From contig JBEKIG010000006.1 in the NCBI GenBank assembly GCA_050011875.1, positions 1-64,000 of the forward strand: a stretch of 64,000 nt of DNA. The letters run 5' to 3'. The stretch comes from Nitrososphaeria archaeon (GTDB lineage Archaea; Thermoproteota; Nitrososphaeria; JACIWG01). The number at the start of each line of letters is the position of its first letter. Positions within the stretch are counted from its first letter, which is position 1. Under the pieces are notes generated by a model. That model saw nothing but the letters and a program-made list of their open reading frames with translations, did not search any database and was not told where the DNA came from. Of this stretch, positions 1,427-35,908 are shown piece by piece. The position numbers and the translations under genes were made by a program.

Positions 1427-1651
1427 ATGTCAAATGTAATCTTCGCAAAAGTAGACAAAAAATATGCTAGACTTGTACGTAAGGTTGCCAAAGCAAGAGG
1501 CGAAAATGTCAGCACATTTGTTAGGAGAGCTGTCTTATGCGAACTTGCACGTTTATCTTACTTGAACGAAGATGAAAAGAAAGCGCTAAATGTTGAGAGA
1601 ATCGAGAGGGCACAGAACACGATAGACAATGGGGAGATGACAACATCATGA
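1427..1651 (+). CDS. Ribbon-helix-helix (CopG-like) DNA-binding protein
   Basis: VIFAKVDKKYARLVRKVAKARGENVSTFVRRAV fits the RHH pattern; GGAG before the ATG; overlaps the next gene by ATGA. Confidence 0.75.
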   Translation: MSNVIFAKVDKKYARLVRKVAKARGENVSTFVRRAVLCELARLSYLNEDEKKALNVERIERAQNTIDNGEMTTS

Positions 1652-2517
1652 CAACCTCCAATGACAGACTACTACACAATTGCAGGCATATTCTAACACC
1701 GACTTGCCAGCATATCCTAACCAAAGGCAAAGACATCTGTGAAAGGGAAAGATGGCCTTTCACTCACCTAGATTTCCCCGAGGTCAATTATGGCACATTC
1801 AGGAACAGCGTCTCATATCTTCTCAAAAGCGAGCTACTTGAGGATTACACAAGTCATCTAGCCTTCTACTGGGTAGTAGGAGTAAAGAAACCTAATGATG
1901 GATGGGGTAACATGAAGTCCTATGGTATGGGGGTGCAAGGACGAAAGAAAGAACTCATTGATCTTATAGAAAGAACTCCTTTGGAAGACAGATGTATCCA
2001 CGATATAAGATTGTGGTTTAGAAAAGATGGCATCTACAGTATTATTGCTGGTTCAGAAGTTGTCAATAAAATTGCTCCACAGAGCAAGGATTTGATTCTC
2101 GAAACCATTGATATAGACCTTTTCAGAACTGCAAAGATTTTAATTCATGCAAATGATTCTGTAAGTATCTGTTTGGGTTGCAGCCTTAAACCTTTTCCAG
2201 AAACGATTCCGGGTTACACTGATTTTGTATATACTTTAGGTAGTCTGGCTAGGTGTATTGAGGAGTGGTCCGATGGAAAGATCAGGATACCCTCGGTCTG
2301 CTCGTGGAAGATCAAAGGCAGACATATAGGCCGTGATAGTGTAACAGAATATTCTGGTGAAAGGTTCAACATTACAGTATCTAAGTTAGGAGAAACTCTT
2401 AGAACGTACTCAAAAATAATGCAAGGTAGGAACAAGATCCGGATAGAGAGGATCGAAGAACCGGATCTGGACATTGCTTCAGTTATGAGAAAACGGTTGT
2501 GTGAAGATTCTCAATGA
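1648..2517 (+). CDS. Putative replication initiator: N-terminal wHTH plus Rep_trans-like rolling-circle nickase domain
   Basis: N-terminal PFTHLDF...YGTFRNSVSYL; C-terminal motifs GRHIGRD, LRTYSK, IRIER in the order of Rep_trans RxDxAxD / RxYxK / RxE; coupled to an RHH gene. Confidence 0.55.
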   Translation: MTTSNDRLLHNCRHILTPTCQHILTKGKDICERERWPFTHLDFPEVNYGTFRNSVSYLLKSELLEDYTSHLAFYWVVGVKKPNDGWGNMKSYGMGVQGRKKELIDLIERTPLEDRCIHDIRLWFRKDGIYSIIAGSEVVNKIAPQSKDLILETIDIDLFRTAKILIHANDSVSICLGCSLKPFPETIPGYTDFVYTLGSLARCIEEWSDGKIRIPSVCSWKIKGRHIGRDSVTEYSGERFNITVSKLGETLRTYSKIMQGRNKIRIERIEEPDLDIASVMRKRLCEDSQ

Positions 2518-2986: not shown

Positions 2987-4012
2987 TCACCTTAACGTCA
3001 AAAATTTTCTAGCTTCAAGCATGGGCTCATAGTCATAGTCTGGCATCTTGGTCCACTTGTTTTTGTTGAACTTTGCTTTGATACGTTCCAAATTTGGCAG
3101 ATCGCCTATTGCATTAAATTCTGAATTAAATTCATTCTCCATAATTCTTAAGCGTATTTCTTTTCTTAGTTCCCTTTTCTCCCACGACCTATAGACCCTT
3201 TCCGTCTCTATTCTCTGAATGTCGTGTTCGTTCATATCGTAATCAAGCTCAAGGGGAGATAGAAGTAAAACTATATTGCGTTTTAGGAGTTCGGAATCTA
3301 TATCATAGCTATAGCTATAGCTAAAGCCCTTTTCAGCGATAAGCCCCGTCTTAATTCTCTCTGCATGAAAAGTGACGATGATCTTTTCAGAAACATCGGA
3401 AACATCAAAATCCCTAATGAAAGGCAAAACTATGCAGTTTTTGGATTCGCTAACTTTATCTCTAATTGCCTTTTCTTTGCTTTCCAAAAACGCATTATAT
3501 GCTTGAAGCGCCTTTAAATTAATATCTACCCGACCCCATTCAGAAGTATGATTAACTGAAAAATCAGGAACAATGGCGTTTGCTAAGAGCATTAATCTCA
3601 AGCTTACAGAAGGACTCCCAGAAGGACCCATTTTACTGATCAGCCATATATCTCTCTCATCAAAGATCTGCCATATCTCTCTTTTATAAATAAAATAAAA
3701 ATCCAACAAGGAGCCCCATTCCTGTTTTAGGTAAAGCTGGAACTTTTCACTGTTAAATCTGAATATTGACTTCAACCTCTGTAACATTTCATCGCTAACT
3801 GCAACGTTGCCCATTTTATCTAATCTTGAAAGTATTATATCGCCCGGTACATCTCCAAACACCATCTTTATAATTGAATCTAACGAAACAGGGATGGAAA
3901 ATGGCCAACTGGGCGGCCTATTAAAATAATCTTCATCAAGTTTTGGCTTGATTTCTTTAAAGTGTTCATATCCCCAAGCCTTTAACAGTCCATCATCGTA
4001 CTGTTCAGCCAT
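2987..4012 (-). CDS. Hypothetical protein (341 aa)
   Basis: Long ORF, coupled (1-nt overlap) to the upstream PD-(D/E)XK gene; no family recognised. Confidence 0.65.
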   Translation of the reverse strand: MAEQYDDGLLKAWGYEHFKEIKPKLDEDYFNRPPSWPFSIPVSLDSIIKMVFGDVPGDIILSRLDKMGNVAVSDEMLQRLKSIFRFNSEKFQLYLKQEWGSLLDFYFIYKREIWQIFDERDIWLISKMGPSGSPSVSLRLMLLANAIVPDFSVNHTSEWGRVDINLKALQAYNAFLESKEKAIRDKVSESKNCIVLPFIRDFDVSDVSEKIIVTFHAERIKTGLIAEKGFSYSYSYDIDSELLKRNIVLLLSPLELDYDMNEHDIQRIETERVYRSWEKRELRKEIRLRIMENEFNSEFNAIGDLPNLERIKAKFNKNKWTKMPDYDYEPMLEARKFLTLR

Positions 4013-4416
4013 TATAGGTCACCTTCCGATTTAAATTCCTTTTCACCAAGCTCCTGTCCGAGCTTATCAAAAACAAGCACTTTGAGTGGAATAAATCCTT
4101 CTTCAACATACTTCCTAATTTGTTCATCCATGCTAAGATTGTAGGTGGAGAAAAAAATGTGGGGAAAATATTTTGATCCCTTCCCCCAATCCTTCCCAAG
4201 CGGCACCTCTGAACCTACCTTTATTTCATACCATATTTGGTTTTTGAAGCCATCTGGCCTATACTTGTCAAGATCTATGATACCGTTCTCTTCAAAAATT
4301 TTTTCTTTTATTTTATCTTCGGAACGAGCCTGATTATTAACGCTTTTTGGATAAATTTTAAATCCCCCGTTTAAAGTTCCTTTCATATGCCAAAGGGTAC
4401 CTTCCATTTTAACCAC
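4012..4416 (-). CDS. Putative PD-(D/E)XK nuclease-fold protein
   Basis: SEDKIKE...YRPDGFKNQIWYEIKVG gives the E...PD...ExK catalytic pattern. Confidence 0.55.
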   Translation of the reverse strand: MVKMEGTLWHMKGTLNGGFKIYPKSVNNQARSEDKIKEKIFEENGIIDLDKYRPDGFKNQIWYEIKVGSEVPLGKDWGKGSKYFPHIFFSTYNLSMDEQIRKYVEEGFIPLKVLVFDKLGQELGEKEFKSEGDL

Positions 4417-4517: not shown

Positions 4518-4837
4518 GTTTTGAAGGGGTTTGGACATATGGGAAAAATTTCTTAACTCGTCCGAAGTCAAAATCTTATTGTACTTAAATATTTAAGAGA
4601 GCTGTTAAGAAAAGAGGTTGTAAAGAGGACGATAATCGACACGCATCCAATCCAAACCAATTACTCGCTAACACTTAAAGGAGAGCAGGCTGTCAAACAC
4701 TTGATAGAACTTATAAAAATAGTTTTAAAAGAAGGAAAATGATTTCTCCAGCTCAAGAGTAAAACGATAACAATTCTAAGAAAAGGCCATTTAAATTTTG
4801 TCTCGACTAAGGCCTTACTCCATTATTAGTGGAACTG

Positions 4838-4956
4838 TAGCACGCCGTGCTAATCTTTTTCACTTCTTAAATTCGGTCTATTCGGTCAATCGGAGACCAA
4901 TTAAGACCGAATGAGCAAATTCATAGATAAAAAAGGCCTAATTTCACGCCGTGAAA
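4838..4956. repeat. Inverted-repeat cluster, candidate origin element
   Basis: TAGCACG-C-CGTGCTA (4838-4852) and TTTCACG-C-CGTGAAA (4942-4956); between them ATTCGGTC x2 (4871, 4880) with an inverted AGACCGAAT (4904-4912). Confidence 0.7.
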
Positions 4957-5016
4957 GTCGTAAACTTTAGCTCAAAATAGGCCTTCTAACTGCACCCTCC
5001 TCCCCCTCTTTCGATA

Positions 5017-5190
5017 GATCTATGATCTGAATGAGAGATTAATCGATCTATGATCTATGATCTATGTGAGACGTCTTAACCATTTATGAATCCCTAGTAA
5101 AACTTAGGACTAACTACACCCGATTAATCTATGATCTATGTGAAACATTAAATTATTAGTTATTCATTGAAAAGATTAATCTATATGAGA
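5017..5190 (+). repeat. GATCTAT / GATTAATC repeat block
   Basis: GATCTAT at 5017, 5045, 5052, 5059, 5133; GATTAATC...TGA unit at about 5037, 5122, 5174. Confidence 0.8.
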
Positions 5191-5260
5191 ATAGTCTTTA
5201 ACCTTCGTTTCAACGGTATTAAGAAAATCCTCTATGTAGTCTCCTCTCACGTCTAAACTT

Positions 5261-5351
5261 GTTATACCCTCAAAAACTTTGTTATCTTATACCATTATAC
5301 CCTCGTTATACCCTCGTTAAATTATTATACCCTCGTTATACCCTCGTTATA
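5261..5351 (+). repeat. Iteron-like (G/A)TTATACCCTC 11-mer block
   Basis: TTATACCCTC at 5262, 5295, 5306, 5325, 5336. Confidence 0.85.
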
Positions 5352-5372
5352 TATCATTATTCTACTATCTAA

Positions 5373-5440
5373 ATGAAGTGTTCCTTATAGTTTCTTGCTT
5401 TTACCCTTACTTACCGTCTTTTCCCAGCTAAACTGCTTAA
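5373..5440 (+). repeat. Bipartite module M1 (ATGAAG-N42-TTCCCAGCTAAA)
   Basis: ATGAAG at 5373, TTCCCAG at 5421; spacer 26/42 identical to M4 without gaps (hand alignment). Confidence 0.7.
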
Positions 5441-5489
5441 GTTTGTTATCCCCTTAAATAATCTTTAATTTGTCCTTAAATTTCATTGC

Positions 5490-5700
5490 CCCATAAACTT
5501 TCTATAAACTTTTTTTATATCCCTATAAAATCTCTATAAACTAAAGTTTATAGCCATATAAAATAATTTATAGCCCCTATAAATTTCATATAAAAAATTT
5601 TATATGCCATATAAATCTCCTATAAAATCTATATAAATATTTTTATAGCCCCTATAAAATCCCTATAAAATGCCTATAAACCCCTATAAACCATATAAAT
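5490..5700 (+). repeat. Helically phased TATAAA block
   Basis: ATAAA at 5493, 5504, 5525, 5536, 5558, 5579, 5590, 5611, 5622, 5633, 5654, 5665, 5676, 5686, 5695 (steps of about 11 or 21-22); inverted TTTATA fills several of the double steps. Confidence 0.85.
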
Positions 5701-5718
5701 TATAGACGTGCTTCAATA

Positions 5719-5810
5719 ACCTGCATGAAGCAGTTTAAAGGATAAACCGTTCTTTAAGCGCGTTTATAGGCTGTTCCCAGTTAAACAGTTAAGCACCCAT
5801 AAATTTATAG
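5719..5810 (+). repeat. Bipartite module M2 (ATGAAG-N43-TTCCCAGTTAAA)
   Basis: 92-bp direct repeat of 6128-6219, about 76/92 identical without gaps. Confidence 0.9.
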
Positions 5811-5888
5811 CTTATAGCAATACTCTTTAAATTTCTTTAAATTTCCTTTAAAGGTCTTTGGATTTTCTTTAAACTGATTTTAAAGACT

Positions 5889-6127
5889 CTTTAGATGGTC
5901 TTTAAACCCTTTACTAAAGCCTTTATGAGCCTTTATAGACTCTTTATGGACCCTTTAGCAGAGCCTTTATAGAGCCTTTCTAAAGCCTTTATAGGCTCTT
6001 TAGAGGCCTTTATGATCCTTTACTAAAGCCTTTATGGGTCTTTATGCCCCTTTAGTAAAGACTTTATCCGTTCTTTATGCCCCTTTATCTTTCTTTATGT
6101 TCCTTTATGATAAAGCTTTATTCCTTT
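5889..6127 (+). repeat. Helically phased CTTT(A) block
   Basis: 23 phased CTTT starts between 5889 and 6124, mean step about 10.7 bp (hand count), with variable, mostly GC-containing linkers. Confidence 0.85.
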
Positions 6128-6219
6128 ACCTGCATGAAGTGATTTAAAGGATATACCGTTCTTTAAGCGTGCTTATAGGTACTTCCCAGTTAAACAGCTA
6201 AGTGTCTTTAAATTTAAAG
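6128..6219 (+). repeat. Bipartite module M3 (ATGAAG-N43-TTCCCAGTTAAA)
   Basis: ATGAAG at 6134, TTCCCAG at 6183; direct repeat of M2 at offset 409. Confidence 0.9.
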
Positions 6220-6302
6220 GATAAAGGGTTCTTTAACGATCCTTTACCGCTTAAGGCCCTTATCGTCTTAAATGATCTTATGATCTTGCTCTTTAAGGAA
6301 GG

Positions 6303-6355
6303 AAACTTATTAACGGCGTTAATAAATTCAAACTTGCTAACGGCGGGTAAGTTCA
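6303..6355. repeat. Tandem inverted repeats with ACGGCG core
   Basis: TTATTAACG-G-CGTTAATAA (6307-6325), then a degenerate copy AACTTGCTAACGGCGGGTAAGTT. Confidence 0.65.
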
Positions 6356-6368
6356 TTCATTGAAAAGA

Positions 6369-6878
6369 CTAAACCTTAAGATCAAGGCGTTCCAGTATAA
6401 CACTTGCGCAGTAAATTAACCTTATGAGACTAAAAGTGTTCACTTGTTCCTCCTTAGGCGTGTCCTGGTTAAGTGCATTAACTACGCTGTTTATAAGCGA
6501 CCAGCCGTCAAGACCCTTGTCAAGCTTCTCTTCAAGCTTCTTTAACTGTAGGGGGACAGAGGGTTTAGAGAGATCTAGGGCCTTTAAGTTAATGTATTTG
6601 TCGTACAGCGACTTCGCTTCATCAGGCCCTACACCTAGTTGCTCTACGACTTCTATGGGCCCGCCTCCTGCATCGAAGATCTTAAACGCCTCCTGCGCCA
6701 CCTCTTTATCGTTCAATTTTTTTGGGTTATCTCGATCCTTCACCAAACCGCTTATCCAGCCTATACTAAAGTGCCTCTTCGCACCGTTGACGTTGAATGT
6801 TCTCTCCGATATTTCCCTGTAGCCTAGTCCTGAGTCAACAAGCTTCAAGACTTCAGCTTTAGCCTGTTCTAAGGTCAT
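6369..6878 (-). CDS. Tandem-HTH DNA-binding protein with C-terminal helical tail
   Basis: VLKLVDSGLGYREIS...SIGWISGLV and AFKIFDAGGGPIEVVEQLGVGPDEAKSLYDKY are two HTH-like units. Start reassigned to ATG 6878 because the track's extension to 6956 reads through a 40-bp (non-triplet) repeat. Confidence 0.7.
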   Translation of the reverse strand: MTLEQAKAEVLKLVDSGLGYREISERTFNVNGAKRHFSIGWISGLVKDRDNPKKLNDKEVAQEAFKIFDAGGGPIEVVEQLGVGPDEAKSLYDKYINLKALDLSKPSVPLQLKKLEEKLDKGLDGWSLINSVVNALNQDTPKEEQVNTFSLIRLIYCASVILERLDLKV

Positions 6879-6884
6879 CTCTGC

Positions 6885-6973
6885 CTGTTCACCTGCTTCA
6901 CCTTGTTCAATTGCATTGTTCAGGCTGTTCACCTGCTTCACCTTGTTCAATTGCATTGTTCAGGCTGTTCACC
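6885..6973. repeat. Perfect 40-bp tandem repeat (about 2.2 copies) rich in TGTTCA
   Basis: CTGTTCACCTGCTTCACCTTGTTCAATTGCATTGTTCAGG at 6885-6924 and 6925-6964, plus a partial copy. Confidence 0.9.
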
Positions 6974-7036
6974 CTGTTCTTCTGGTTTTTCCTGTTCACA
7001 AGGTCTAAAAGCGTCAACGTCTTTAAAAACTTTTAA

Positions 7037-7130
7037 TTATAGACGTGTTTCCTTAACTGTATGAAGCGATCTTAAGACTTTCCCATCCTTACCCCTATTT
7101 ACCCTCTCTTCCCAGTTAAAATCCTTAAAT
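7037..7130 (+). repeat. Bipartite module M4 (ATGAAG-N42-TTCCCAGTTAAA)
   Basis: TTATAGACGTG leader shared with M2; ATGAAG at 7061, TTCCCAG at 7109. Confidence 0.75.
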
Positions 7131-7179
7131 CCCTTATTTCCTTATTTTATTTGTAAAACTTAAGCCAAGACATCAAAAG

Positions 7180-7218
7180 GGACGTTGAACAGATAAACGG
7201 ACTTTGAACAGATAAACG
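7180..7218 (+). repeat. 19-bp tandem direct repeat
   Basis: GGAC[G/T]TTGAACAGATAAAC twice; contains TGAACA, the reverse complement of TGTTCA. Confidence 0.8.
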
Positions 7219-7252
7219 AAAGTCCTTGATCTATTGAACTACCCCGCCCCTT

Positions 7253-7438
7253 TTAAAGACCGATTATCAGCATTACCAGCGTCACAGTCGCTATACGTAA
7301 GAAGTCAAGGTTCATATCGCTGTCAGCACCGGTTTGAATGAAACGATTAGTCTTATCACCCTTCAACTTAATATGTAGTCTCTTTTCAACCTCAGCCTTA
7401 CTAATTAAGGGTGCTTTAACATCTCGGTCTTTTTCCAT
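7253..7438 (-). CDS. Small protein with C-terminal hydrophobic anchor
   Basis: 61 aa, ending in FLRIATVTLVMLIIGL. Confidence 0.45.
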   Translation of the reverse strand: MEKDRDVKAPLISKAEVEKRLHIKLKGDKTNRFIQTGADSDMNLDFLRIATVTLVMLIIGL

Positions 7439-7928
7439 ATCAAATTTAATGTTTAATTGCCTGATCTATTAATATTTACTGGCGTCTTTAAGATGTCTTT
7501 GAGTGCTATATTTAAGGCCAAATAGACTTCCCATTGGACTTATTTTTTGCCTATAACTATCAATTAATTGTTTCATGGGGTGATGTCATACATAAAATCA
7601 CGTTTAATCGTCGATATATAACAATCTTCTGGTATAATGCATATTCTAGGTTATGCTTCTAACTGATTTCGGTTTGCCCAAATATTTACCCGACAAGTTG
7701 ATAGAACCGGATACCATTAAACTTAAAAGAAGGTATCTATCATTTCAAGTCATTAGTAGAAAAGAAGGAAGGTGTCGCAAGTCGATAAATATCAGACATG
7801 GACAGAGCAAAATGCTAACAGATTTTAAATGCCCCACCTTAGAAAATAATGGTCTTCTCCAATGGCCATTCCTTTCCCATGAGACAGGTACTAATTAACC
7901 ATATATACTAAATCAAAGAGTGAGATAG

Positions 7929-8805
7929 GATAGTGGCCAACTTATTCAGTTCTCCAGTGCCAAAGCAGATAAACGTATATACGTAAATCTATGTGGAGCG
8001 AGCCAGAGTTTCCTAGACAATTTTAAGCAATTTGAAGACAAAATCGAACTATGGGATGAGGACAGATTACTAAAGGAGTTCAAAGAAACTGACATGGCGT
8101 TCAAACTAATTCTAGATAATTCTCCTTTTATGATAGCCGAACGGTCGACTCTTAATTATATCCTTTCGATTATTGATAATAAAGGAATTAAGGAAGAGGC
8201 TGAAATTAAAAGCTGTCTGAAAACTCTATTGGATATGAAAGATCGTTCCGTCACAGTAAATAAATGTGCTAAATTGTTGTTCGATATGTTTGATGATAAT
8301 GAAAATCTCAAGAAGTTAAGCTATGATCAACTTCTTCCTATTGTTATGTCATCTATTCAATTCCTTTATATCTATGGTCTGAAACCAATAGAAAGAGCTT
8401 TTCGTAGAGCCAACCCAAGTCTAAAATCTTTGTTAAAGAGCGTATATCTTAAAACTGAAACTAGATCTAATTGGGGATACCTCTTCAATTTCTATCCTAA
8501 ATTGGTTCCAAATGAAATTATTAAGAATCTTTCAACATATAATAGCGAGAACTTTGGCAAAAAAATTAAAAGAACTTTTGAAGAAAAAAGGGTTAGCATA
8601 TGAACCCCAGAAAAAGTCTGAGGAAAATGTCAATCCGTATAATGAGGACGATGCACAATATGAGATCGAAAGATGTCATATCTTTGCAGTTACATTTAGC
8701 CAGATACAAGATTGGGCTGAGACACTTGAAGATACTATAGATGATATGTTTCTTTGGATAGTCTCAAAGGAAGAAATGATAGTCTCAAAGGAAGAAATAT
8801 CATAA
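7929..8805 (+). pseudogene. 5'-truncated, frameshifted Mrr-like restriction endonuclease remnant
   Basis: The frame of ORF 8094-8603 stays open upstream to 7929 without a start and reads ...KIELWDEDRLLKEF, like the end of an Mrr catalytic domain. It apparently continues in ORF 8512-8805, which ends in a 21-bp tandem duplication (8757-8798). Confidence 0.5.
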
Positions 8806-9298
8806 AATTCATTTGATTTAGAGCTACAAGAGGTTCAACAGGTTCAAACATAGTGATCAAAGAGGATGGCACAATAGTTCTTGAGCAAAGAGACAGTCAA
8901 TGATTAGCACCCTTAAAGTTAACAATGAAAGGATAAAAAAATTAATTTCTGAACAAGCCTTTGTTGACCTAAACAAAGGTATAGCAATAAAACTTGATGG
9001 ACTAAAATCCTAGCATTAAGGCCTAAAAGTCACAGCTTACTACACTCTTTTATCTTATCCATTTCAAGATAGAAATTGAAACAAATTTAATCGTTTTTGC
9101 ATTCTTCTTTTTAATAATCACAATAATTTTTTTAATTTAGTGATGACATTTAAATGTCAAGCAAAGTTAAAAAATTTATAATAAATTTCGCTATATCCTT
9201 ACTTTACAATAGTAATTAAATTCAAACTTTATATTTTACGATTTAGAAAAGAAATAAAGATAGAGGAAATGTATATGATTTCAACATCTCTTGGTAAA

Positions 9299-9327
9299 AT
9301 TACTAAGATTTACAAGATCTTAGTAAT
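9299..9327. promoter_or_regulatory. Perfect 11-7-11 inverted repeat (operator or recombinase core site)
   Basis: ATTACTAAGAT-ttacaag-ATCTTAGTAAT, flanked by direct ATCTCTTGGT (9286, 9326). Confidence 0.6.
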
Positions 9328-9344
9328 CTCTTGGTGGTTGATAT

Positions 9345-9449
9345 ATGGAATCACCAAATAATCGTTTTACACCATTAGTACCTCAAGGTAAGGTGGGAGA
9401 AAATACTTGGAACGCTAGACTTGCTCAAGCACTAAGGAAGAGAGGATAA
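9345..9449 (+). pseudogene. N-terminal stub of a truncated gene
   Basis: GGTGG RBS-like site, then MESPNNRFTPLVPQGKVGENTWNARLAQALRKRG*; KSADFELFF follows in a shifted frame and runs into the convergent HEPN gene. Confidence 0.35.
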
Positions 9450-9484
9450 GTCTGCAGATTTCGAGCTTTTCTTTAATCCTTCCA

Positions 9485-10759
9485 TTAATTTAGATCTATC
9501 AAATCAATGATTTTATCATGGTTAGAATATTCTTCATGATTTATAAACCATTTAATGGATTTTCTAAGAATTTCTTCTAAACTCCCAAGTTGTTCTTGAC
9601 TCAACTTAGTTTCTACTCCGTGCACGATTTTACTCCTAATAGCATACCATTCCTTTATTCTGTTTCTGAGTTCCTCCCTATCATTCAGAAGGTTACCTCC
9701 TAATACTCGAGAGATTCTGGTGGCTAACCTATGTGTTACTTCAGTTAGTTCAGAAGCTTTAGAGTATAGGGACTCTAATGATATGAAGTAATCTATCCAA
9801 CTATCTTCCAACCTTTCTCGTTCATAGGCAAAATTAAATCGACGTATTGATGCAGTCAAATATCCAATTTCCTTAATCCGATTTAGAAGAATCAAAAGGT
9901 TTTTTAGTTGCACTTCTTCGGAATCAGTAAGATTGAAAAAAGCTTCTACTTGTTTTTCTACAAACTTTACCCCCGCTGGAGGTTCAATAACCTTCCAAGG
10001 ACGACTTGGAAGCGCATACGCATAGTATATCCTCGAGAAGCCTATCTTCTCCTTCTTCAACAATCTTAACGATGTTATGACGCCTTCGATGTGTTCTCTC
10101 CAATCATTGCCGTCAACGGGCATATATAGAATGAACTCAGGATAGGATTCGAGTTCATAACCATGACTCTCTTCTGCTTCTACCAACCTATGAAACTCTT
10201 CTTGTGTGATCTTTTTTATCGCCAATCGATCTTCCAATTCAATGTTCCTTGAGCAAATAAAATTCTGAAGTGGGCAAATAAAAAAATTGGAAACCGAACC
10301 ATCGTAAAGGTACTTTTCGTATCTAAGGTATTCCATAAGGAAAACATCATCAAAGTGGCGAGCGAATGCTTCTGGATTTGCGAATAATGAACGTATACGA
10401 CTCCGTTCTCTCTCCTTAAACAACCTTTCTAAGAAGAATGCAAGCTCATCCTGATATTCTTCCACAGTTGAGGCATGAGGCGGATTCCTGCAAATATTTT
10501 CTTGGAGAAGAGTTTTCAAACATTTTTCTACAGAAACAAGACAGAGACTTAGATTCCTTTCTTCCAAGTCAGGTCTTAGTTCTAAAATGTTTGTAACAAG
10601 TTCAAGATCTCCTTTAATAAGGGTTTTGATGCGATCAAAGCGCGAACCGTACTCTGGAAAAAAGGATTTATCTAAAACACTGATAAATGCATTGTTAAGC
10701 TTTTTAAGATATTCAAATAATTTAGGATTTCTTATCTTTTGATTTTGACTATAAGTCAT
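9485..10759 (-). CDS. HEPN-domain protein (ApeA-like), putative RNase/defence effector
   Basis: SIRRFNFAYERERLEDSWIDYFISLESLY and WYAIRSKIVHG (Rx4H). Confidence 0.8.
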   Translation of the reverse strand: MTYSQNQKIRNPKLFEYLKKLNNAFISVLDKSFFPEYGSRFDRIKTLIKGDLELVTNILELRPDLEERNLSLCLVSVEKCLKTLLQENICRNPPHASTVEEYQDELAFFLERLFKERERSRIRSLFANPEAFARHFDDVFLMEYLRYEKYLYDGSVSNFFICPLQNFICSRNIELEDRLAIKKITQEEFHRLVEAEESHGYELESYPEFILYMPVDGNDWREHIEGVITSLRLLKKEKIGFSRIYYAYALPSRPWKVIEPPAGVKFVEKQVEAFFNLTDSEEVQLKNLLILLNRIKEIGYLTASIRRFNFAYERERLEDSWIDYFISLESLYSKASELTEVTHRLATRISRVLGGNLLNDREELRNRIKEWYAIRSKIVHGVETKLSQEQLGSLEEILRKSIKWFINHEEYSNHDKIIDLIDLN

Positions 10760-11107: not shown

Positions 11108-11315
11108 TCTAAAATAACAATGTCAAGAAGAAAAAGCTTTCCCTACACTCACTCCCTTTTTATGACTATTGCTAAGATCTTGATAAGTTTACTTGACTGA
11201 CTTCTTGGAATACATCCATAAATGGACATATTTTGGTGTTTGAGCCCTAACTATTTGTGCTAATACCTGGCCTTCGGCACTATTTTTAGTTATTCAAGTA
11301 TGTTGCATACCCGTT

Positions 11316-11339
11316 CGGGTATAAATCCCGGACGCCGCA
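11316..11339 (+). other. 3' tRNA fragment (tRNA-Gly-like), candidate att site
   Basis: CGGGTATAAAT-CCCGG-ACGCCGC-A matches degenerate T-loop, 5-bp T-stem 3' strand, 7-nt acceptor strand and discriminator A; no 5' half is present. Confidence 0.55.
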
Positions 11340-11592
11340 TTTTCCTTTAAATTTAGAGAAGATAATGATTTGTTAACTTTCATTAGGTACCTCACTCATG
11401 TATCTACTATCTCCAAATATTATCTTATGAATCGTCTTAGGCATAGTCAGCTTATTATTTCCCAATATTTTTACCAGTACTCTCTCGGTATAAAGATCTA
11501 CGCTCTAAACATGGTAATTTCAAACCTAAATTATGGTAACTGCAGAAGAAATCATATAAAGTTTTTATTTGTACGTTAAGTAAATTTATTGA

Positions 11593-34783: not shown

Positions 34784-35908
34784 TTAGTTTATCCCTTGCC
34801 TTTTCTTTTGAAGTTCTTTAACTATCTTCTCTATCTCTGAAACCTTAGAAATCTCCTTTTCCACTACTTCTAATCTATTTCTTAAACTAATATTTTCAGT
34901 AGCTAGAGAATTAACTAATGTTTGTAGTTCCTTGTTTTTCTCGCTTATCTCCTCTCTTAGCTTGTTAACATCTTCTCCAGAGCCAAAAACGGTTAAAGTG
35001 TGTTCTCCTTGCTGATAGAACTTTCCTAGATCTTCAAAGGTATATCTTCTATAAACTTCGGTAAGATAGCCTTCATGTCCCATAAGAGTTTCAACTATGT
35101 CAACGGGTATTATAGATCCTAGTCGAGTTCTAAAGAATTTTCTTAAAACGTGTGGATGAATAGTTAGCCTATTAGTTGAACTATCCTTTTTCATAAATCC
35201 CGATTTTAATAAAGCATTTTTCCATATAAAATAAGCTGTTTGCATTTCAAAAGGAAATATTCTTTCATCTTCTTTGTTTTTAGCGTATAAGTGGCTTTTC
35301 CCTATCGCAGATTTAAGATAGCCTTCTCTCACTTTCATCCATTCGTTTAGAAATAGAACGGCCTCTTTTGAAATAAAAGTTATTCTCGAATTTCCCGATT
35401 TAGAATTTTCTCCTTTAACCTTTATCCTATAAGGTTCTCCATCCTCTAAATCAGAAGATTTCAGTTTTAGACATTCTCCTATTCTCATCCCTGAACTAGC
35501 TAATATTGTGAATAATGCTTTCCCCTGAACGTTAACATGTGCAAGAATTTGTTTAAGCTCTTCATTACTTGGAACTTTATCAAGTGTTAAGGCCCTAGTT
35601 CCCTTCACTCTATTATTTAGCCTTCTCCAGAACTTATCAGAAAGTTCTATATCATTCTCTATAAGAAATACCTTTACTGAACTAAGCATAAGTCTTATAC
35701 TTTTAGGTGGCTTAGTGCTTATAGATTGAAGAAACTTATCAATATCTTCTTCAATATCCCTTTTTTCGCTGAAATATTTTTCAACTTGATCTTCTAATTT
35801 GCTTTCTCCATATATGCAATTAAAGAAGTGTTTAAGTGATAGTAGATAAGATGCTTTCGTATTTTTAGAACTGTACATGTCTAAGAACTGTTTTATTCTA
35901 TCTGTCAT
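34784..35908 (-). CDS. Tyrosine recombinase/integrase with C-terminal coiled coil
   Basis: SSGMRIGE, KSG, HPHVLRKFF, LMGH, YL..VY: the R-K-H-R-H-Y set is intact. Confidence 0.92.
   Translation of the reverse strand: MTDRIKQFLDMYSSKNTKASYLLSLKHFFNCIYGESKLEDQVEKYFSEKRDIEEDIDKFLQSISTKPPKSIRLMLSSVKVFLIENDIELSDKFWRRLNNRVKGTRALTLDKVPSNEELKQILAHVNVQGKALFTILASSGMRIGECLKLKSSDLEDGEPYRIKVKGENSKSGNSRITFISKEAVLFLNEWMKVREGYLKSAIGKSHLYAKNKEDERIFPFEMQTAYFIWKNALLKSGFMKKDSSTNRLTIHPHVLRKFFRTRLGSIIPVDIVETLMGHEGYLTEVYRRYTFEDLGKFYQQGEHTLTVFGSGEDVNKLREEISEKNKELQTLVNSLATENISLRNRLEVVEKEISKVSEIEKIVKELQKKRQGIN

Follow-up and report, generated by a model that had tools for sequence, protein, structure and literature searches.

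A dispersed family of composite repeat modules with helically phased word arrays in mobile DNA of a Nitrososphaeria archaeon

Modules and genes at the locus

The window analysed here is a stretch of 64,000 nucleotides at the start of contig C6 (JBEKIG010000006.1) in the genome of a Nitrososphaeria archaeon (GCA_050011875.1), which has a size of 2.64 Mb and is 97% complete. It contains four copies (M1 to M4) of a bipartite non-coding module, in which the head motif ATGAAG, found at 5373, 5725, 6134 and 7061, is followed 48, 49, 49 and 48 bp downstream by TTCCCAG, always on the + strand. The modules are accompanied by arrays of short words and a helix-turn-helix (HTH) gene, and the same island holds a ribbon-helix-helix (RHH) gene and a putative replication initiator gene, here called Rep (Table 1). 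Labels such as C2, C3 or C4 denote contigs or loci of this genome (G000), and G001 is the sister species in the same genus.

The bipartite pattern occurs four times in the window (mean of 100 shuffles, 0.01), and the positions, spacing and orientation given in an initial annotation of this DNA all hold. The two subtypes distinguished there were recomputed: M2 and M3 (B type) are 82.6% identical over 92 bp, where about 83% had been stated, and the spacers of M1 and M4 (A type) are equal at 26 of 42 positions. The leader TTATAGACGTG, described as common to M2 and M4, occurs at 5700 and 7037 and nowhere else in the window, and the repeated word does switch at M1, M2 and M3. The spacing of the modules is irregular (352, 409 and 927 bp) and they have no Rfam match, which separates them from CRISPR, as had been proposed. 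The order A-B-B-A, noted in the initial annotation, is incidental because other loci read B-B-A, B-B, A-B or A-A.

Misassembly had been named as a possible source of the pattern. Contigs of the runs X1 and X2, spanning 4715-5817, 5788-6914 and 6944-9744, reproduce the region with identical letters and a depth like that of the flanks. A third, low-depth run covers 5727-6051 without change, and the metagenome contig L057 carries all four modules at a spacing equal to that in the window. X1, X2 and L057 possibly come from the material that also yielded the window, so they do not count as independent evidence for the assembly. M1 to M3 lie between two 27-bp direct repeats; the paralogous locus on C14 has one copy of this repeat, and its left flank is directly joined to the HTH gene. 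A read joint 5182-6378 was considered as evidence for excision and rejected, as it equals the C14 paralogue sequence.

Table 1. Features of the module region and the putative initiator gene in the window.
Feature	Position	Strand	Remarks
RHH gene and gene for predicted winged HTH (wHTH) / TBP-fold Rep_trans-like initiator	1427..2517	+	same island; not linked to modules
GATCTAT repeat block	5012..5190	+	abuts HTH gene 3' end in C3 and C14 paralogues
27-bp direct repeat bounding M1-M3 block, left copy	5162..5188	+	family D20; 81% identical; spacing 1193
TTATA(CCCTCG) array, 5' of M1	5262..5351	+	11-bp period
Module M1, A type	5373..5470	+	head ATGAAG, pyrimidine-rich core, TTCCCAGCTAAA at 5421, tail
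CTATA/CCATA array, 5' of M2	5490..5705	+	period 10.5-10.65; 19/20 11-mer units distinct
Module M2, B type	5725..5817	+	tail palindrome 5796-5810 and second inverted TTATAG = array word
CTTTA array, 5' of M3	5822..6130	+	28 words; period 10.75-10.8; 26/28 11-mers distinct
Module M3, B type	6134..6240	+	tail palindrome CTTTAAATTTAAAG at 6206-6219 and second inverted TAAAG
27-bp direct repeat, right copy	6355..6381	+	overlaps HTH stop codon
HTH + coiled-coil gene	6369..6999	-	core 6878-6369; ATG 6956 gives 195 aa
Probable TATA box of HTH gene	7022..7029	-	by eye; 32-33 bp from module head at all three HTH loci
Module M4, A type	7061..7160	+	head-to-head upstream of HTH gene, likewise at C3 and C14
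19-bp repeat with inverted copies of HTH-gene word	7176..7240	+	TGAACA at 7186 and 7205

A dispersed repeat family

The four modules are real, yet they are not private to the window and belong to a dispersed family of about 110 bp. A profile built from 14 copies was searched against the genome, with the reversed genome as a control. It revealed 19 copies below the threshold of E<1e-5, with E values from 1.5e-25 to 9.5e-12 (next match E 3.8; best match in the reversed genome 0.26), which represent 11 loci on 8 contigs. A model built from the 19 copies gives 19 matches in this genome and 4 in G001 (23 in total). Three copies, one of them in the sister species, are truncated at the head. The module reaches past both motifs, and its tail extends to about +45. 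Conservation among 19 full-length copies falls on the head ATGAAG, TTA at -10, TTCCCA-G-T-AA, TAAG at +16 and TA at +26, and in 17 of these copies head and tail are 48 or 49 bp apart. Units are stacked in tandem at 5 of the 11 loci and at one locus of the sister species. The GC content is 38.6% in the core and 31.8% in the tail, compared to about 40% in the genome. The initial view of a composite conserved cis-element in mobile DNA is supported.

The expectation that a pattern search would recover the module elsewhere held for this genome and G001 and failed further afield. In 39 other relatives the motif pattern matched at chance level only. The module model gave 5 weak matches in 149 other genomes of the class (E 7.5e-4 to 7e-3) and 2 in 150 genomes of the phylum (E about 8e-4); these were rejected as copies on reading, as the array and the full core are absent. 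No convincing copy was thus found outside this genome and its sister species in the genomes searched. An all-species scan returned one record (L041), whose module is identical to one already counted, and a metagenome scan returned 8 distinct loci, all in a single metagenome and with 99.7-100% identity to the present genome. Among viral contigs the strict pattern had 0 matches and a loose pattern 110, of which 80 were scored with a best E of 0.04. The patterns used on these collections are exact and were built on the copies of this genome, so diverged families would be missed. Rfam held no match to the modules better than E 1.4, and no description was found in a literature search with few subscription papers; the module had not been recognised in the initial annotation either. 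The family is apparently undescribed and limited so far to two genomes.

Phased word arrays

In 12 of the 23 copies the module is preceded on its 5' side by an array of 7-37 copies of one word, which is CTTTA, CTATA/CCATA, CGTAA, CCTA, CTTA or TTATA. All 11 arrays tested have a period peaking at 10.0-11.0 bp (pooled 10.75), and tandem-repeat periods in the window include 11, 21-22, 32, 43 and 53. Short and long spacings compensate each other better than order-shuffled spacings do (pooled p 0.0005, 9 arrays). The word is fixed and the spacers are nearly all different, with for example 18 of 18 and 26 of 28 distinct 11-bp units. Since the phase is kept while the spacers are nearly all distinct, plain slippage does not explain the arrays. 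A word-free scan of the genome detected 19 phased tracts, of which 11 lie at modules.

Genes for a family of small RNAs, one of the readings offered at first, would account for the strong strand asymmetry, for TATA-like words 24-26 bp before the ATGAAG of M1, M2 and M4 (seen by eye) and for the two short hairpins which B-type copies are able to form. However, a consensus structure is absent across the 19 copies and also among the 12 A-type copies, covariation was not found in them, the best Rfam match is as poor as stated above, and helical phasing is a property of DNA. We therefore consider such genes improbable, and the initial proposal of a small-transcript family is not upheld.

Further observations concern CTTTA arrays. 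On C11 (17478-17600, L046) a perfect 22-bp unit is repeated about 6 times within the array, and the alignment of this array to another assembly (L054) is 22 bp longer, so its copy number is variable or uncertain. An orphan CTTTA array without a module lies inside a gene region at C3:19135-19239.

The array word in the module tail

The tails of B-type copies carry a palindrome, NNN-TAA(A/T)TTTA-NNN, whose variable letters correspond to the upstream array, and after it a second inverted word. Two inverted words are thus present in B-type tails, but words in direct orientation also extend beyond the core. Over 12 units, the upstream and downstream word codes have a cosine of 0.83, compared to 0.35 when permuted; with one unit per word, the true pairing of upstream array and tail ranks first of 720. 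M2 and the C2 copy have a near-identical core, yet array word and tail word both differ between them, while the copies g14a and C5a are alike on both sides and differ in their cores. Kinship contributes to this match, which is therefore no proof of co-evolution with a protein.

The arrays also show A/T and G/C dinucleotides in antiphase (8 of 9 arrays), which corresponds to the archaeal nucleosome code (PMC3691661). The host possesses a histone, a gyrase match was not found, and the array-side junctions at C2 and G001:C14 are followed about 10 bp downstream by a probable TATA box of the host (by eye). The arrays could thus be histone-positioning or bendable upstream elements which tune an adjacent promoter or silence island genes. 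For histones, though, there would be no need of a word specific to each unit and matched on either side of a conserved core, and A/T-only pentamers, in which the arrays are rich, are excluded from nucleosomes according to PMC3691661. Moreover, junctions beside promoters are expected from selection alone, and the closest gene on the array side may face in either direction. The antiphase rule and the host histone leave a chromatin role with a small share of the probability; the word matching is not explained by it, and we regard it as quite unlikely. An idea of strong gyrase sites was dropped, as no GyrA match was found in the host.

Genomic setting and recombination

Direct searches against G001 covered nine loci, and for the two loci on C3 the comparison was made through one 12-kb region. 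None of the 11 loci has a module at the colinear position in G001, which carries a truncated copy elsewhere in the island that holds C3a. The C4 island of 9.8 kb (L043:363-10200), absent from G001, contains, beside its two modules, two IS200/IS605-type elements and genes for a wHTH protein (324 aa) and a second MCM. This MCM (604 aa) is 54% identical to the host MCM and ends shortly after the lid domain; an MCM gene occurs at 1 of the 11 loci, about 3.3 kb from a module. A 6-kb segment which G001 lacks ends 90 bp from C3a, and C2 consists of 390 bp of array and module in place of a 1.3-kb hydrolase region of G001. Both species have one 198-bp copy in flanks that are unrelated; the identity between its two versions is 98%, compared to about 94% for colinear DNA. 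The copies are mosaic, with switch points at about -57, -12, +13 and +46 relative to TTCCCAG. Few clean empty sites exist, and an imperfect inverted repeat lies inside longer homology.

A part of these data would fit a selfish, non-autonomous mosaic repeat of the BIME, REPIN or MITE kind, spread by a transposase or integrase encoded elsewhere and having no present function. Most of the 19 copies have no linked gene, the 198-bp copy is nearly identical in unrelated flanks of the two species, the array at C2 begins exactly at a host GTCTTT overlapping the word, and other dispersed repeats and remnants of integrases abound in the genome. Against this stand the lack of a target duplication at C2, homology which extends well past the imperfect inverted repeat with variable ends, and the lack of a hairpin common to A- and B-type cores. 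In addition, phasing and word matching need a selective reader. A purely selfish origin is therefore rather unlikely in our judgement.

Tandem stacking, the mosaic copies and the imperfect inverted repeat around the core (78% of cells paired) would also be expected of site-specific recombination sites, att or integron attC-like, which stack units as cassettes. However, no pair in this repeat changes on both sides (0 of 10), the switch points do not converge on one site, and the nearest integrase remnant found is about 10 kb or more away from any module. A likeness to a recombination motif of Sulfolobus plasmids was considered, for which no counterpart turned up in the literature searched. The recombination site which the initial annotation had offered finds, as one with a fixed crossover, no support in these comparisons, and we give this explanation little weight.

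A tyrosine integrase gene is present at 34784-35908 of the window, and related 3'-end fragments occur elsewhere in the genome. A third repeat family with phased CTTTA words and a 6-bp loop was observed at C4:255319-255552 and also on C4, C10, C14 and C15. It shares TTAACCTGCA / CAGTTAA arms with the module, and at C11 a short common stretch joins it to the core of a module.

The HTH gene and the Rep-like gene

The HTH gene has two paralogues, on C3 and C14, each with a module head-to-head upstream. In the window, a tandem duplication of 40 bp (6880-6959) puts the gene out of frame with GTG 6999, the start that it shares with the C3 paralogue; the C14 copy is interrupted by a stop. In the 5' part of the gene in the window, TGTTC(A/T) words occur about ten times, in several frames and without phasing. 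Searches of Pfam, PHROG, PADLOC and folds gave no match for the protein at threshold (model pLDDT, a predicted confidence score, 68 from one sequence); leads of the HTH_23 type in the Atlas are all under 0.9. An orphan 5' remnant of the gene, without a module, was noticed at C6:98587-98628.

The Rep-like gene is open reading frame (ORF) 1648-2517. Its predicted fold (pLDDT 92) combines a wHTH with a TBP-like sheet and matches TBP-fold structures; Rep_trans proteins resemble TBP as well. Conserved residues are Y254 (84 of 84 members), K256 (80/84), R265 (82/84), E267 (80/84) and D230 (84/84), and H226 stands at the position of RepD D142. Mapped by eye on RepD, they fit the Rep_trans pattern (RxYxK, RxE, acidic metal ligands; PMC4797284). 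The Pfam model PF02486 (Rep_trans) matches 0 of the 84 members, no Rep_trans chain is among the PDB matches listed, one inovirus Rep matches at E 0.003, and 313 relatives at E<=0.001 have no Pfam match. Judged from residues and the modelled fold, the protein is probably a rolling-circle initiator of an unnamed archaeal family. The segment 1427-2973 holds the RHH gene, Rep and two small ORFs; Rep and the small ORFs are 75% identical in G001.

One could assume a purpose-built region of four modules, served by the HTH, RHH or Rep protein of the window, which is how the initial annotation saw it. At 3 of 3 HTH loci the module lies at a fixed distance upstream of the gene, and the word of M4 recurs in the 5' end of the HTH gene and, at two of the three loci, also in inverted form at +76/+77. 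However, M1 to M3 are absent from both paralogue loci, the HTH gene adjoins 3 of the 19 copies and the other 16 do not adjoin its start, and the reading frame is damaged in the window and on C14. Rep is found at 1 of the 11 module loci. The co-occurrence of module and Rep proposed earlier did not emerge: no module lies within about 20 kb of the G001 orthologue or in 9 regions around 11 distant Rep matches (best E 1.4). One system served by the embedded HTH or Rep protein is thus very improbable, and neither protein explains the family.

Proposed interpretation as protein-docking platforms

We favour, with a probability of about 0.5, that the modules are decaying protein-docking platforms, origin-like or operator-like, of a genus-specific family of mobile elements. 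The family itself, the helical phasing, the match of array and tail words, the residence at non-colinear positions and the recombination between copies are directly observed. An iteron-like replication origin would take the larger part of this estimate and is proposed tentatively; an operator or a centromere is the more doubtful form.

A unit would consist of an array of one word on one face of the helix, a common core of about 60 bp and a tail with the same word, partly inverted. The platform would be double-stranded DNA of integrative mobile elements, confined to the genus as far as searched. An element-specific DNA-binding protein, probably of the wHTH or HTH type, may bind the words cooperatively, coat the array and wrap it, and a common factor may act at the core. 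The resulting complex would most likely start replication of the element, or else serve as an operator or centromere. Most copies would now be orphans. The window would then hold one unit belonging to the HTH gene (M4) and, gained or kept between the two 27-bp repeats, three orphan units in a block of 1.2 kb (M1 to M3).

Several points weigh against the docking-platform reading. Eleven of the 23 copies have no NNTA array, the words and limits of the arrays were picked by eye, and phase-keeping is significant singly in 5 of 9 arrays only. M1 is poorly matched to its own tail (0.41), the word orientation flips in the tail and not across the core, and same-word units are kin, so common descent may account for a part of the word match. 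The core is not AT-rich, and the C4 island carries two different words. No amplification is seen in read depth, taken as contig depth only, and no gene family accompanies more than 3 of the 11 loci. No reader protein emerged among the island proteins, and a complete element was not found, viral scans and viral contigs included.

A more far-reaching version, which we consider doubtful, is a modular address system. One conserved core would be read by a shared machine, and a code of 2-3 nt, placed once per helical turn upstream and repeated in inverted form downstream, would specify the element. Complete units would be exchanged and stacked like cassettes, and an island would possibly collect the addresses of several elements, for example for replication or carriage by several helpers or for protein titration as a defence.

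At least five words on one conserved core represent a natural series for testing protein-DNA specificity. Many mobile elements of this archaeal class are without a recognisable replication protein, according to the survey in PMC6563490. Their cis-acting sites are barely mapped, and if the modules are origins, they could supply vector parts for a lineage without genetic tools. These prospects are limited by the narrow range of two genomes, in which neither a reader protein nor a complete element was found.

Comparison with known systems

The closest described design is the replication origin of Staphylococcus aureus pathogenicity islands (SaPI), in which 6-12 penta- or hexanucleotide iterons around an AT-rich centre are read by the winged helix of Rep (PMC9371898; for iteron origins in general, PMC4980987). 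The modules resemble it in the many copies of short, element-specific words (7-37 per array in 12 of 23 copies), in the extra MCM and wHTH genes at one module locus and partly in at least two words of opposite direction on the far side of B-type copies, where direct words also extend past the core. In contrast to SaPI, their words number up to 37 and lie almost exclusively on one side, and a core of average GC content (38.6%) is common to units with different words. The orientation of the words flips in the tail, units stack and recombine, and the modules are not directly downstream of a helicase gene. As two defining features fail, the AT-rich centre and the position relative to the rep/helicase gene, we do not file the family as a member of the SaPI type.

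Centromeres and operators of plasmids, like R1 parC, TP228 parH and pSM19035 parS, are built of phased short repeats. They share with the arrays direct repeats about one helical turn apart and some inverted pairs, whereas the modules have unconserved spacers and occur as many dispersed copies with a common core. No par operon or partition genes were recognised in the ORF lists of the 11 loci, where 30 island proteins were scanned with Pfam. The host oriC (C10:67090-67410), upstream of cdc6, contains origin recognition boxes (ORBs) and G-strings around an AT-rich stretch. CCAG-T is common to the ORBs and the tail motif of the module, but the module tail is without GGAAA and G-string, an AT-rich unwinding element is missing, and none of the modules lies near the host cdc6.

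Repetitive extragenic palindromic (REP) and BIME mosaic repeats and miniature inverted-repeat transposable elements (MITEs) are dispersed, intergenic, mosaic and lineage-restricted, as are the modules. Unlike these, the modules have no common hairpin, no target duplication was found, and long phased arrays are present. The cryptic integrated elements of Thaumarchaeota are islands with MCM, wHTH, RHH or rolling-circle Rep genes, similar to the islands described here and from the same archaeal class; in the part of PMC6563490 covered, repeats are mentioned only as att sites, terminal inverted repeats and target site duplications, and arrays of this kind do not appear.

Related arrays and neighbouring genes

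A second family in the genus comprises TTATC, TCAAC, TCATC and TGCAC arrays with a period of 10.1-11.2 and other cores. These arrays lie in the neighbourhood of two coiled-coil genes, a genus-specific pair encoding about 530 and 310 aa and often accompanied by a divergent wHTH gene; three of the arrays share a CCCAG-containing core with inverted words on the far side. The gene pair was found at L044:4100-7739 (C18), also on C5, C17 and C3 and at three G001 loci, and has no family match. Near a distant homologue of the 530-aa protein in another family of the phylum (G155, L280:17920-18130), an AAGC(AC) array with a period of about 11.75 was detected. These arrays of sister design suggest that phased word arrays are a recurring part of such islands. 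In viral scans with Rep and the 530-aa protein no relative was found.

The window contains further features of note. Two ORFs at 2987-4416 (341 and 134 aa) show PD-(D/E)XK-like motifs by eye, with no Pfam or PADLOC match at cut-off; the region of the 134-aa ORF is 94-100% identical to a part of the C4 island. An ORF of 424 aa at 9485-10759 has a HEPN/ApeA-type appearance by eye and a weak PHROG match only. A repeat at 11228-11341, which has 7 other copies and a tRNA-3'-like end, is possibly a decayed att end of the island.

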